In this document: one piece after another, positions 1,168 through 59,590 of the stretch | How the letters are laid out: every line of letters starts with the position of its first letter | How positions within the stretch are numbered: the stretch's first letter is position 1 | Assembly (NCBI GenBank): GCA_024137785.1 | Contig: JAHRHZ010000095.1 | Coordinates: 10,356,203-10,420,202 of the forward strand | DNA from: Ginglymostoma cirratum | Taxonomy: Eukaryota | Length of the DNA: 64,000 nt | Direction: 5' to 3' | Made by a program: the position numbers and the translations under genes | The notes under the pieces: model-generated | What the model was told of the DNA's origin: nothing | The model's database searches: none | Seen by the model: only the letters and a program-made list of their open reading frames with translations

Positions 1168-1266
1168 AACAAGGTGTGGGGCTGGATGAACACAGCAGGC
1201 CAAGCAGCATCATAGGAGCAGGAAAGCTTGACGTTTCAGGCCTAGACCCTTCATCAGAAAAAATCT
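1168..1266 (-). mobile_element. Short Penelope-like terminal repeat with hammerhead-like core; 11 bp TSD
   Basis: Near-identical to 8389-8482 and to the tail of the GIY-YIG fragment at 58585-58710; flanked by GATGGTGAGAT at 1157-1167 and 1267-1277. Confidence 0.75.
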
Positions 1267-2010
1267 GATGGTGAGATTATTGGTGAACAGGAGAGAGAGT
1301 GGGAGCAGGAGACTGAGCCTGCTGGGTGTTGGAGCGAGTCTGTTTGGGGTTACATGTGATGCAGGTGAGGTTGTGGTGGGGGTAGAGAGAGAGAGAGTGT
1401 GAATCTGATGAGGAGGGTGCAAGACTGGTGGATGCAGGGAGCCGGAGAGTGTAGAATTGTACAAAGTTGAAAGGCTGAAATTGAGAGCAGATTGAGGAGG
1501 TTGGGGCAAAGCTGTGTGGGAGAGTTGAAAACTGCAGCGTGATCATTGAGTGAGATGAGGACTGATTTTCAGGGATAGCCGGGTGAGTTGGGTGTGTCAG
1601 AAATGAGGGGGAAGCAAGCCATGGTGTGAGGTTCATGAAAGGTGGAGGAATCAGCAGCTCCAGTTTGAATGTAGGTTTCCCCATCTCTAACCCTGTTCTG
1701 GCGTGAAGATACTCCATGGAGTCAGGGACTGCTAACACCACCCGGGGTTGCTGTTGAAGCACGTGTCCCCAAAAGCATCCCTGGCCATCTGTTCACATCT
1801 CCATCCATGCCTCTCCTTCAGCCACCCTGCCCAACTCACAGCCTGTTATTCCTTGGGTGGTCCGTGGTCCTCACTATCCCCTCCTCTGTTCCTTTTATTT
1901 AGTTGCTATAAGTATCTCACAATTTGCCCCTAGAGGTTATAGCTGGGGTTAGTTCATTAGGGACACATTCCTGCACGAATATCTAGTAACTATTCCCTAT
2001 CTGTTTTCAG

Positions 2011-2106
2011 GATGATGAGTTACAATATGCAATCAAGCGACTGGTTGAAGGACTGGCAGCAACCCGTGAAGCAGCCCGTCCGGGCTTCAGCTTGGCCCTG
2101 GCACAG
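2011..2106 (+). CDS. MYBBP1A: MYBBP1A exon (~exon 2), DDELQYAIKRLVEGLAATREAARPGFSLALAQ
   Basis: ttttcag| acceptor, |gtcagt donor, 96 nt, phase 0-0. Confidence 0.93.
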
Positions 2107-2270
2107 GTCAGTCTCTTGGTTTAACAGACATGTAATGCGCATGGAGCCGTTACAACTAACAGACTGAGTACACCGTTGGAGCAATTTAATTTCTGGTCCT
2201 GGAACTGCAAAACCTGACAACCGTCTACAGCACCAAGATTTCTCTTTGATTCAGATGTTGCTCCTGTTCA

Positions 2271-2975
2271 AAGAGTAGTACAGCACAGGACCAGGCCCTT
2301 TGGCCCATCAAGACTGCACTGACACATGATGCCTTTCCAAGTTAAAAACCTTTTGCCTGTATTTGGTCCGTATCCCTCTATTCCTTGCCTGTTCATATTT
2401 CTGTAAAGATTCCTCTGAAACATTGCTATTGTATCCACCTCCACCACCTGCTCTGGCAGTGCATTCCGGGCACCTACCACTCTCTGTATAAAAAAAAACC
2501 TTAGCTCTCCTTTAAACTTACCCCCTCTCACCTTAAACCTATGTCCCTGTGAAAAAGATTCCAACCCTTACAATTTTGTAAACTTCTATGAGGTCACCTC
2601 TCTTCATACAATGTTCAAGTGAAAACAAACCAAGTTTGTCTGATTTTCCTTAGAGCTAATACCCTCCAAACAAGACAATATCCGATAAGCCATTTTTGTA
2701 CTGTTTCCAAAGCAACCACATCCTTCTCTGGTACTGTGGTGACCAGACTGTACACAATATTCCAAATGTGGCTGAACTAAAGTTCTATCCAACTGCAACA
2801 TGATCTGCCAATTTTTATTCTCTGTGCCCTGGCTGATGAAGGCAAGCATGTCAAATGCCTCTTGACCACCTTTTCCACTTGTGTACCCACCTTCAGGAAA
2901 CTGTGGACCTGTACATCTAGATCTCTCTGTGTAGTGATACTACTAAGAGTGCTGCCATTTACTATTTAATATCCC
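2271..2975 (-). mobile_element. CR1 LINE 3' fragment (degenerate)
   Basis: Minus-strand ORF remnants LVQPHLEYCVQ and FFIQRVVGARNALP, typical of the CR1 ORF2 C-terminus. Confidence 0.85.
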
Positions 2976-3029
2976 ACTTTGTGACATAGCCTTTGGAAAG
3001 CACACAGCCTGGCAATCTCCCGCTGAAAT

Positions 3030-3400
3030 CCTCAGCAATGCCTTTGCATCTTCTGGACTTCATTACTGCACTTCTCTCTTGGATGTCCTCTGTCATCCAT
3101 AAACTTGAACTCATTCAAAACTCAGCTGCTTATCTCCTGACTGGCATCAAGTCCTGATCATTCGTCACTCATGTTCCCACTGACTTTCGACGGCTACTGA
3201 ATCGACAATACAGTGATTAAAAATTTTCATCCTTCTTTTTCATTACCTCCTCTGCCTCATTCCCCTCCTCATTTCTGTATAGTCCTCCAGACAAACCTTC
3301 AGCAACTTGTCTGAGCATCTTCTCTGGCTCGGTGCAATCTATGGTTTTGCCAGCGCTTCTGTGAAACTCTGTTGTATGGTTTACTACATCAAGGAGACCA
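3030..3400 (+). mobile_element. L2-type LINE 3' fragment (degenerate)
   Basis: ccataaacttgaactcattcaaaactcagctgc and ttaaaaattttcatcctt resemble the L2 ORF2 end; opposite-orientation relatives at 4420-4930 and 17610-18230. Confidence 0.55.
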
Positions 3401-57672: not shown

Positions 57673-57741
57673 GTCATTTGTGATCGGCTGCTGCAGTGTG
57701 CAATCAAGTACATCGCTGATGGAGTGCGGCAGCACCAGCAG
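57673..57741 (+). CDS. MYBBP1A: MYBBP1A exon (~23), VICDRLLQCAIKYIADGVRQHQQ
   Basis: ggttcag| acceptor, |gtaagg donor, 69 nt, phase 0-0. Confidence 0.88.
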
Positions 57742-58287
57742 GTAAGGAACCAGGCGCTCCTTGCCACTCAATTTGCCAAACCTTTGCAGAAGGCTCTTTG
57801 ATGACACCAGCCAGCTGGTTTCATCCTTGGAAGAGACTACAAGAAGAAGTATTCCTTACTGGGAGATTGCTTCTGTTGAACCCAAGGCTACTGTGGCCCA
57901 GGGCAGAGACCATTCAGACCATCATACCTGTCTAACTCTTTCAAAGATCAAACTAATCCCACTCCCCAACCTTTTCCTGTAGCCCTTGCAAATTTTCTAC
58001 TTGAAGTATTTGTCCAGTTAAAAGTTACTGTTGAATCTGTTTCCACCACTCTTTCAAATAGTGCATCATAATTCACTGTTTAGAGCAATTTCTTATCATC
58101 TTCCCCGTTATTATTTTAATTCTGTGTCCATCCATCTTGTGAATGGAAAGTGCTTTTCTTCAATTATGTCATCAAAATCCCTCCTAATTATAAACTCCTC
58201 TATTCAATGTGCCTTTCTGTCCTCTTAAAGAAAACAATTCTTGTGTCTCCAGTTCCTCCAATTTCAACGAGCTCCTCACCAAAATGT

Positions 58288-58580
58288 AGAAAACAGGAGT
58301 AGGAGTACGAGTAGGCCATTTGCCACATCAATTCTCCTTCTCCAATCAACATGATCGTTGCCTATCCTCTATCTCAATGCCATACTCCTGCTTTCTTCCC
58401 ACAGCACTTGACATCTTTAGTCTATAGAAGTCTGTCTCTTTCTTTCAGTGCCCTTCACAGTCTTATGTACTAGATAACTCCATGGGTTCACCATCTTCTG
58501 AGTAAAGAAGTTTCTCTGTTCCAAAATGGTCTACCCTGAGACTGTGATCCCTTGTTCTGGAATCGCCAGACAGGGGGATA
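58288..58580 (-). mobile_element. CR1 3' fragment, apparently continuing at ~59600-60130 beyond the Penelope-like insertion
   Basis: gaaaacaggagtagg..ggccatt tail; gagtaaagaagtttctc; RT-like sequence resumes after 59600. Confidence 0.55.
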
Positions 58581-58584
58581 ACCA

Positions 58585-59134
58585 GAGATAGTAGGAACTG
58601 CCGATGCTGGAGTCTGAGATACCACAGTGTGGAGCTGGATGAACACAGCAGGCCAGGTAGCATCAGAGGAGCAGGAAAGCTGATGTTTCGGGTCAGGACC
58701 CTTCTTCAGAAATGGGGGAAGGGAAGGAGGCTCTGAAATAAATAGAGAAAGGGGGAGGCGGTGATAGAAGATGGATGGTGGAGAGAAGATGGATAGGTCA
58801 AGGAAGTAGAGATGAAGTTAGTAAAGGTGAGTGTCGATAGGGAGTTAGGATGGGGGTGGGTGGGAGGGAAGACAGACAGGTCAAGGAGGCGGGGACAAGA
58901 GCAGGGCGCTGGTCTTGGGATGAGGTCGGGTGTGGGGAGATTTTGAAGCTTGTAAAGCCCACATTGAGGCCATTGGGTTGTAGGGTTCCAAGGCGGAACA
59001 TGAGGTCATTTGGCCTCCAGTTTTCAGGTGGCATGGTTGTGACACTAGAGGAGGCCCAGGATGGACTTGTCGTCCAGGGAGTGGGAGTGGGAGGGGGAGT
59101 TGAAGTGGTTTGCGACTGGGAGGTGTTGTCGTTT
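58585..59134 (-). mobile_element. Penelope-like element 3' fragment: GIY-YIG endonuclease C-terminus plus terminal repeat with hammerhead-like core (58682-58709)
   Basis: Minus-strand peptides VANHFNSPSH..LDDKSILGLL and LMFRLGTLQPNGLNV, characteristic of the PLE endonuclease end. Confidence 0.8.
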
Positions 59135-59590
59135 GTCGCGAACCACTTCAACTCCCCCCTCCCACACCTTGGACGATAATCATCCTTGCATCCAGCCTTT
59201 TCAGCATTTTAATGAGATCTGCCCACCTCCCCCACCTGGCTCTTGCGTGCCCTCTAACTCGCGCGCTCTTTCTCGCTTTCGTGCGCTCCCTTTCTCTCTC
59301 TCGCTCTCTGTTGTGCTCTTTCTCGTGCGCTCTCTCTCGCGCGCACTCTGTCGCTCTCTCTCTCGCTCTCTCTCTCTCGCACGCTCTCTCACTCTCTCTC
59401 TCTCACTCTCTCTCTCATTGACCCAATCTCCTAATGTAACAAACCTGGCAGCCAGAAATTGACGTGAACTTTTGCTCCCTCTGTGGCAAGAATATCTGAA
59501 GAAGGGTCGCTGTACCTGAAACATTAACTTTCCTTTCTCTCCATAGATGCTGTAAGGCCTGCTGAGTTTTCCCAAAAATTTCTAATTGTC
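59135..59590 (+). mobile_element. Second, inverted Penelope-like fragment containing a CT-rich repeat (59255-59416)
   Basis: Starts VANHFNSP.SHTLDD on the + strand; ends with CTGAAGAAGGGTC..GAAACATT and agatgctgtaaggcctgctgag. Confidence 0.65.

Follow-up and report, generated by a model that had tools for sequence, protein, structure and literature searches.

The window analysed here is a 64,000-nucleotide stretch of the Ginglymostoma cirratum genome, which contains the gene MYBBP1A on the forward strand and, dispersed among its introns, copies of a minimal hammerhead motif belonging to two families, A and B. The orientation of MYBBP1A means that the copies labelled antisense in the original prediction were labelled correctly. 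Core 1230 lies upstream of the first matched MYBBP1A exon (2008), but was taken as intronic because this exon carries a splice acceptor and the N-terminus of homologs is ~80 residues longer. The features of the window are as follows:

2008..57741, forward strand: host gene MYBBP1A, with residues 13-1005 of shark homolog P0001 (1250 aa) represented in 22 matched exon stretches
1162..1260, reverse strand: family-A pLTR copy with the short 3' end (~100 nt), core 1230-1257 with G10.1-C11.1 changed to G-U but both ACGU and the catalytic bases still present
6073..6149, reverse strand: family-A fragment beginning inside stem II, without the first catalytic box
6879..6977, forward strand: family-A copy with the long 3' end, beginning at the predicted cleavage site
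8371..8482, reverse strand: short family-A copy, minimal hammerhead fully intact, core 8452-8479
18325..18467, forward strand: older family-B-type copy, stem II A-U variant, G12 and ACGU box mutated
19169..19262, reverse strand: old copy, decayed to 34% divergence from model B
19446..19474, forward strand: doubtful decayed copy, possible head-to-head partner of 19233
19783..20007, both strands: head-to-head pair, 19889-19783 (reverse) and 19907/19933-20007 (forward)
20356..20446, forward strand: weak extra copy, E=0.0024, below the cut-off for counting
22490..22572, reverse strand: old copy, palindrome lost, catalytic bases kept
33032..33105, reverse strand: family-B copy without a core
37141..37323, both strands: head-to-head pair, ~37263-37141 (reverse, core broken) and 37265-37323 (forward, core absent)
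58582..59143, reverse strand: 5'-truncated Penelope-like element comprising a coding stretch for the endonuclease C-terminus, the 3' region and a pLTR with core 58682-58709
59495..59598, forward strand: old family-B copy whose core, 59496-59525, retains the catalytic bases and has a CpG change in its ACGU box

A strict core pattern gave four matches in the window and none in 100 shuffles. Profile searches recovered seven of the eight cores of the original prediction where it had placed them but missed that at 19446 on the forward strand, which showed only a loose alignment to the 19233 copy. The copy at 1162..1260 is flanked by an 11-bp target-site duplication (1157-1167 and 1267-1277). As had been claimed, the full GAAACGTC is kept only at 1230 and 8452, but the contrast drawn between decayed sense and intact antisense copies overstated the asymmetry on five counts. 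Antisense copies with a lost or mutated core had been left out (6149, 19889, 33105 and 37263, from the profile search). Two of the three sense copies described as core-less are inverted halves of antisense insertions, 19911 pairing with 19889 and 37271 with 37263. The CpG change in the ACGU box is common to sense 59496 and antisense 58682. Family B natively ends in GAAACGUU, and a test for GAAACGTC therefore leaves this family out by definition, while core 1230 has itself lost its G10.1-C11.1 pair, now G-U. Within the window, intact cores were counted in 0/5 sense and 2/9 antisense copies (p=0.51).

As a class these motifs are already known as the minimal hammerhead of Penelope-like pLTRs, and reading them as minimal hammerheads of Penelope type, with ACGU as the palindrome, is supported by the link to a parent element, by pairing counts and by PMC4209133. 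The CUGANGA and GAAA boxes, the NUH site and the unpaired base after A9 were all found, with A following the box in 179 of 186 pattern-matching copies. Stem II pairs 1-4 are formed in 170, 175, 170 and 174 of these 186 copies, the first pair being G-C in 133 and G-U in 34, and helix I pairs 1-4 in 74, 77, 57 and 59 of 82 long copies, with a fifth pair in 5/82. The reported covariation of stem II held insofar as the stem does vary, but GGGTC/GGCCC versus GACCC is only a one-sided change (U-G to U-A); a double change, G-C to A-U, occurs at pair 2 in nine joint cases among the 186, in related copies. Helix I variants (U-A versus C-G, and U-G versus G-C) likewise come from related copies and are not independent events. 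The ACGU palindrome, which replaces helix III and loop 3, is present in 101 of 213 core-spanning copies, and 91 of the 112 broken boxes are CpG transitions. In 4/4 folded copies the monomer helix I pairing probability was ≤0.01, with competing inactive structures predicted from energies that include neither tertiary contacts nor protein. An Rfam scan gave no hammerhead family among 12 matches at E≤5, as would be expected because the motif is without helix III.

Genome-wide, one young core has 64,762 exact copies, compared with 0 for its reversed control. Core 58682 adjoins an endonuclease C-terminus, and the element in which it lies (58582..59143) has 75-77% identity to the 3' end of a long copy, L199, and a CpG change in its ACGU box. 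In L199 a reverse transcriptase domain (RVT_1, E 3.6e-7) is followed, within one ORF, by a C-terminal GIY-YIG domain (E 4.8e-5), both over the Pfam cut-off, which is the order that characterises EN+ Penelope-like elements. A further long copy, L200, has a pLTR-ORF-pLTR arrangement with an inverted copy, its ORF being split across frames; this partial pLTR tandem with an adjoining inverted 5'-truncated copy is seen there and in the head-to-head pairs of the window, and putative pairs, by a loose distance rule, hold 213 of 503 copies. The linker between reverse transcriptase and endonuclease in long ORFs is CNRRKCYTC, which fits the CX2-5CxxC Zn-finger linker of Neptune, a motif common to Neptune and Nematis (PMC8557442). 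The shark element is thus likely to be of the Neptune clade, a label that rests on one linker motif.

Of 242 young copies, 96 begin 0-7 nt before the core (48/142 in family A and 48/100 in family B), and this pile-up falls where the 4-bp helix I ends, on an initiator-like motif. Starts at the cleavage site were not enriched (5/47 and 1/28 copies, as by chance), and we rejected cleaved RNA as the template, which the 6880 copy had suggested, for this reason; the same result argues that uncut RNA is the likely template for reverse transcription. Judged from the genomic ends, the ribozyme likely lies at the extreme 5' end of the transcript, so that a cut would take off the cap. Any cap-derived extra G is masked at the 5' ends of copies by filler bases and T-run slippage. 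A spliced 5' exon, considered for the sharp 5' end in view of acceptor-like AGs upstream, is disfavoured because duplications directly abut the start in several copies. In family A the 3' ends form two peaks ~35 nt apart, +92-94 and +127-131, and family B also has two peak regions, in keeping with the optional 30-40-bp tail of Penelope-like elements. One further copy (L011) contains two units, both starting at -4 to -6 and inside a 13-bp duplication, of which one reads on into the element body. Exact head-to-tail junctions of short units, assessed with one family-A junction pattern, number only 24 genome-wide. In young family A, nothing longer than a 14-codon upstream frame opens at the AUG of the core; the start of the long frame is ~166 nt downstream. 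No published strand test or coincidence of start site and helix I was found in searches of the literature and of three supplementary text files of PMC11167929 (0 matches); the coincidence is a side result and new as far as we could find. Repbase, Dfam, published figures, bioRxiv supplements or those of PMC4209133 may already contain this family.

The original prediction had proposed that active cores may be selected against in the pre-mRNA orientation, and that sense and antisense counts be stratified by divergence. We made this count in 34 other gene stretches (1.8 Mb, window excluded), with gene orientation backed by T>A in 30/35 stretches and by collinear paralog exons. Sense and antisense copies numbered 250 and 253 overall, 147 and 156 when spanning the core, 75 and 80 with the catalytic bases kept, and 40 and 49 with both catalytic bases and ACGU kept (intact cores, p=0.40), with 29/37 for strict cores and 17/22 for solo strict cores; p was at least 0.39 in every stringency class. 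Intact cores were sense in 40/89 cases (95% CI 0.34-0.56; sense:antisense ratio CI 0.52-1.27), and sense copies showed no excess mutation at catalytic positions across the 34 genes. At the C15.2 CpG position of family A there were 13 sense versus 3 antisense changes, which the paired G offsets (9 versus 13). Age stratification gave an OR for intact cores of 0.62 (p=0.15). We rejected a strand bias in each of the six stringency classes, in the age-stratified comparison and among solo copies. A sense deficit stronger than ~2-fold is excluded; all intact-core counts lean antisense (sense fraction 0.44-0.48), and the stratified OR leaves room for a mild deficit. The first 1.66 Mb, window included, had given 34 sense and 49 antisense (p=0.12), and 200 kb more brought the counts closer to parity (40/51 if the window is included, 40/49 if it is not). 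For the exact young core we counted 20 sense and 24 antisense occurrences, where the genome mean would predict 11.3 on each strand. CR1-type LINEs, the intended positive control, showed no orientation bias (83/97 and 126/137), and the power of this set to detect a known bias is thus unproven. Because intact motifs are similarly frequent on both strands, the intronic copies are likely inert passengers and not purged from the sense strand.

We consider it quite unlikely that weak purifying selection is at work, with intact sense cores occasionally cutting the pre-mRNA, in trans with element RNA or through close copies, and being mildly depleted. The sense fraction of 0.44-0.45 in the intact classes and the OR of 0.62 lean this way, as do strict same-strand neighbours (1 sense versus 4 antisense within 5 kb, and 2 versus 6 within 10 kb) and a Xenopus preprint that reports depletion of retrozymes in introns, where we found no strand analysis. 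However, no test was significant, non-CpG catalytic positions show no sense excess, the density of young sense cores is above the genome mean, and one age bin is reversed (12/19 sense versus 6/14 antisense). That the short copies form a separate non-autonomous family, SINE- or retrozyme-like and spread by ribozyme cleavage and circular RNA, is very improbable. Short copies are very common, with four T's preceding the core in many of them as opposed to three in long copies, and retrozymes are pLTR-derived and present in one chondrichthyan (bioRxiv 10.64898/2026.07.22.740005), but the cleavage site marks neither the start nor the end of the shark copies, there are few exact tandem junctions (24), subfamily variants are common to short and long copies, and in L011 the same 5' end continues into the coding body.

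Unlikely, too, is that the motif owes its conservation chiefly to a role as a promoter signal in DNA (an initiator with a downstream element) or as a protein-binding RNA fold, with cleavage incidental; on strand neutrality this agrees with our preferred explanation. The position of the 5' ends on an initiator-like motif speaks for such a role, and in family A the ACGT box occupies positions +28 to +31 relative to the inferred start. The internal promoter of Penelope has an ACGT-containing downstream element, RGACGTGY (PMC2377424), and in vitro insertion does not need cleavage (PMC11167929). However, pairing in helix I and stem II is kept through subfamily changes, which a DNA element would not need, the box is shifted by 2 nt in family B, and the anole motif cleaves, with C3/G8 rescue (PMC11167929).

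We therefore prefer, as highly probable, the reading that these are minimal hammerheads in dispersed pLTRs of a shark Penelope-like element, likely Neptune, and that they are strand-neutral and decay mostly by CpG mutation. The element would be transcribed from an initiator ~4 nt before the catalytic box, its protein would start reverse transcription internally, ~95 or ~130 nt downstream as in the anole element, and copying would run to the 5' end of the uncut RNA, leaving scattered solo copies of ~100 or ~135 nt with one ribozyme each. In vitro, minimal hammerheads show no cleavage as monomers and low cleavage as dimers (PMC4209133), and the anole element has protein-assisted cleavage that is dispensable for insertion, with a 30-40-nt tail and two reverse transcription starts (PMC11167929). 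Cleavage would require a second copy pairing through ACGU, or the element's own protein, so that a lone copy in host pre-mRNA would rarely cut, at little cost to the host; strand neutrality and CpG decay likely arise because folding predictions give an isolated copy no active form. The shark genome thus holds tens of thousands of intact minimal hammerheads without clear strand avoidance in introns, and this is population-scale evidence that lone copies are near inert in host pre-mRNA. The copy ends, in turn, put the ribozyme at what would be the extreme 5' end of the element RNA, point to uncut RNA being copied and narrow the question of the ribozyme's role to cap removal or translation control. 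A doubtful extension, which we offer tentatively, is that the Penelope hammerhead of the shark element acts as a switch at the 5' terminus of the RNA that carries it, partitioning uncut templates from cut RNAs. Transcription would start at the first base of helix I, so that the first four nucleotides of the capped RNA would close the ribozyme, and cleavage, triggered by protein or a second RNA, would remove a ~32-nt leader with the cap and, in the young family, the upstream AUG. Uncut RNAs would then be copied into the genome and cut RNAs silenced or translated cap-free, which, if true, would assign the ribozyme a definite function.

The shark copies resemble the metazoan Penelope pLTR type-I hammerheads (Cervera and De la Pena 2014, PMC4209133) in their CUGANGA/GAAA boxes, unpaired base after A9 and G10.1-C11.1 pair, in having a palindrome instead of helix III and a short helix I, and in lying in pLTRs as mostly solo, dispersed copies with inverted pairs nearby. 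They differ in their host, no shark case being found in the accessible part of that paper, in a stem II of 4-5 bp, and in abundance, with 64,762 exact young cores versus ~4,000-9,000 motifs in coelacanth/Xenopus, obtained by other counting methods. Non-LTR retrozymes (Li, Clavereau and Pollet, bioRxiv 10.64898/2026.07.22.740005) are also pLTR-derived short units with type-I hammerheads and chromosome-wide monomers; unlike retrozyme tandem arrays, the window copies are solo or head-to-head, and the profile search found among them no tandem units with a hammerhead each, as retrozymes have. Poseidon of Anolis carolinensis (Frangieh et al. 2024, PMC11167929) similarly has two 3' ends ~35 nt apart, an uncut RNA template without enrichment of RNA or copy ends at the cleavage site, and an AUG at the ribozyme. 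However, the shark element has a Neptune-type Zn-finger linker, its core AUG in young family A serves only the 14-codon upstream frame, and the pile-up of 5' ends just before the core was not found described for Poseidon in the accessible text, supplements included. As in Drosophila virilis Penelope (Schostak et al. 2008, PMC2377424), transcription would start inside the pLTR from an initiator with an internal promoter. However, that element has a 75-bp intron 46 bp after the start, with the hammerhead at that intron's 3' end, whereas in the shark element the start itself appears to be where the hammerhead begins.

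The cores of the original prediction were found in the window, where a strict core pattern gave four matches against none in 100 shuffles. A profile search recovered 14 copies, nine on the - strand and five on the +, the core at 19446 being absent from them. The earlier list left out four damaged antisense copies, at 6149, 19889, 33105 and 37263, and of the three sense copies it described as having lost the core, two belong to antisense copies as their inverted halves. The strand asymmetry it reported is not significant within the window (intact 0/5 sense versus 2/9 antisense, p=0.51). 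An Rfam search of the window returned no family matching the hammerhead motif.

The motif forms the head of a repeat ~100 or ~135 nt long. Upstream of the copy at 58682 the sequence continues as an endonuclease C-terminus with 75-77% identity to the end of L199, a long copy from the same genome with RT and GIY-YIG domains, both above Pfam cut-offs. Of twelve long copies fetched, L200 has the layout pLTR-ORF-pLTR, preceded by an inverted copy, and the ORF is divided between frames. The linker sequence CNRRKCYTC is consistent with the Neptune/Nematis Zn-finger linker in the accessible part of PMC8557442, and on this motif a Neptune/Nematis assignment would fit. Exact matches to the young core, taken in four variants, number 64,762 in the 4.36 Gb genome, with 0 for the reversed control.

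The host gene in the window is MYBBP1A on the + strand, an exon peptide of which matches DNA_pol_phi and has 98% identity to a whale shark protein, pointing to a shark near that species as the source; residues 13-1005 are mapped by 22 stretches from 2008 to 57741. Other features of the window are:

8589-11733, + strand, near-complete LINE whose ORF1 encodes a GDSL esterase and whose AP-endonuclease/RT ORF2 is interrupted by stops
31685-32230, - strand, 181-codon frame matching ALKBH8_N (E 6.7e-8)
49455-49591, + strand, SNORA50 H/ACA snoRNA inside a MYBBP1A intron (111.5 bits, gathering score 90)
59081-59173, local inverted duplication (hairpin) at the 5' end of a truncated Penelope fragment

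The LINE, presumably CR1-type, starts ~100 bp from the hammerhead copy at 8452, on the opposite strand. Because the ALKBH8_N-like frame has 17 related places among the fetched genes, we regard it as a repeat fragment. The human SNORA50 host gene is CNOT1, and the host in sharks would then differ. The hairpin matched several miRNA models with scores far under their cut-offs and is likely a by-product of the insertion junction.

Strand was examined in 1.8 Mb from 34 genes, sampled via exons located in HECT, BEACH and myosin-head genes and consisting mainly of stretches between exons of a single domain, with some end tiles, presumed intragenic, reaching up to ~10 kb beyond the last located exon; ~80 kb was masked. 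Gene orientation was backed by T>A in 30/35 stretches and by collinear exons of two paralogs. The paralogous BEACH genes L203 and L214 (contigs C96 and C263) each carry an opposite-strand single-exon ORF, 91% identical over 395 aligned residues and putatively MAB21L. A cluster of HECT-domain C-termini, at least five in number with four on the - strand and a single one on the +, lies inside 300 kb at G000:C218:30673466-30969645. With the window left out and E<1e-3, sense and antisense copies numbered 250 and 253 (core spanned 147/156; not spanned 103/97), falling to 75/80 with catalytic bases kept, 40/49 with ACGU also (p=0.40), 29/37 with full stem II added (p=0.39) and 17/22 for solo strict copies. 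Stratification by family and divergence gave an OR of 0.62 (p=0.15; copies with <30 aligned downstream columns dropped), and the sense:antisense ratio has an interval of 0.52-1.27. Exact young cores in the first 1.52 Mb unmasked numbered 20 sense and 24 antisense, both higher than the 11.3 each predicted by the genome mean. CpG transitions account for 91/112 broken ACGU boxes. The strong claim that intact cores avoid the sense strand is refuted by the counts in these genes, though a mild sense deficit may exist.

Two profile families were built, A from 32 and B from 8 long copies, ending in GUC and GUU, respectively. Among 186 pattern-matching copies, out of 312 that span the core, stem II pairs are kept in 170-175, and in nine of them G-C has become A-U by a double change; of the 82 long ones among them, 74, 77, 57 and 59 keep helix I pairs 1-4, and 5 keep the fifth pair. 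As the copies are related, these counts reflect subfamily differences, not independent events. With energies that omit tertiary contacts and protein, four natural copies gave helix I probabilities of at most 0.01, and the minimum-energy structure predicted for the dimer was far more stable than a designed double-hammerhead fold, which is consistent with the published absence of monomer cleavage.

The 3' ends fall in two clusters ~35 nt apart. For 5' ends we used copies with <12% divergence, unmasked flanks and an alignable anchor (242/517, window included). Starts at -7..0 of the first catalytic C account for 48/142 in A and 48/100 in B, or 48/97 and 48/82 of ends within -29..+60, where uniform expectations are 8.6 and 7.3; starts no more than 2 nt from the cleavage site (A 5/47, B 1/28) are near the expected 3.9 and 2.3. 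Flanking repeats of at least 8 bp, some of them chance or filler, occur in 21/49 short A and 17/62 short B copies of an earlier set. One fetched stretch holds a tandem case:

L011:1453-2240, - strand, two-unit insertion, both units enclosed by one 13-bp duplication

Both units start at -4 to -6, the first extending ~480 nt into the element body, and the two same-strand hammerheads lie ~620 nt apart, the upstream ACGU box with a CpG change; this insertion is a natural candidate substrate for a cis-dimer assay. Short A copies frequently have at least four T's ahead of the core, long copies three, perhaps through slippage as cDNA synthesis finishes. At the 5' end point the genomic sequence of A reads CCATTT and that of B TCAGTT, both initiator-like. 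We infer that transcription starts ~4 nt ahead of the catalytic box, coinciding with the helix I end, and the template for copying would be uncut RNA.

Internal priming followed by run-off to the RNA 5' end would yield solo pLTR copies, each inert unless a partner or the element's protein is present, and we consider such neutral copies the most probable reading by far. Counting against neutrality, all intact classes tilt antisense, close same-strand strict pairs within 5 kb number 1 sense versus 4 antisense, and one CpG position has 13 sense versus 3 antisense changes; a LINE control also showed no orientation bias, so the sensitivity of the strand test is not demonstrated. Mild selection against intact sense cores is improbable. 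Slightly less improbable, though still unlikely, is a promoter or binding role with cleavage incidental, which is compatible with neutrality: in A the ACGU palindrome (+23..+27 counting from the first catalytic C) occupies +28..+31 relative to the inferred start, with a shift of 2 nt in B, and the Penelope downstream promoter element includes ACGT in the accessible text of PMC2377424. The box may serve both as a DNA element and as an RNA palindrome. For the short A unit, 24 exact head-to-tail junctions were counted, on one pattern and with long-tail junctions lying outside the count. A retrozyme-like family of short copies is very improbable.

For the element itself, cutting would strip ~32 nt including the cap; in young A the stripped leader also contains an AUG at the head of a 14-codon frame, and the long frame begins ~166 nt downstream. 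A role for this removal is doubtful. Its effect could be up or down, since in viruses self-cutting by a ribozyme can promote translation that needs no cap (PMC13725137, in the part available).

Neither the strand test nor the coincidence of start site and helix I was found in the text of openly available papers, and the accessible part of bioRxiv 10.64898/2026.07.22.740005, which already reports hammerhead-bearing pLTR derivatives in one chondrichthyan, contains no strand analysis. The shark motif is of an already known kind, the Penelope-type minimal hammerhead, and shares features of the metazoan minimal hammerhead as far as PMC4209133 is accessible. Transcription of D. virilis Penelope likewise begins inside the pLTR (PMC2377424), and the two 3' end clusters resemble what the accessible part of PMC11167929 describes for the anole element, a tail and two sites where RT starts internally.
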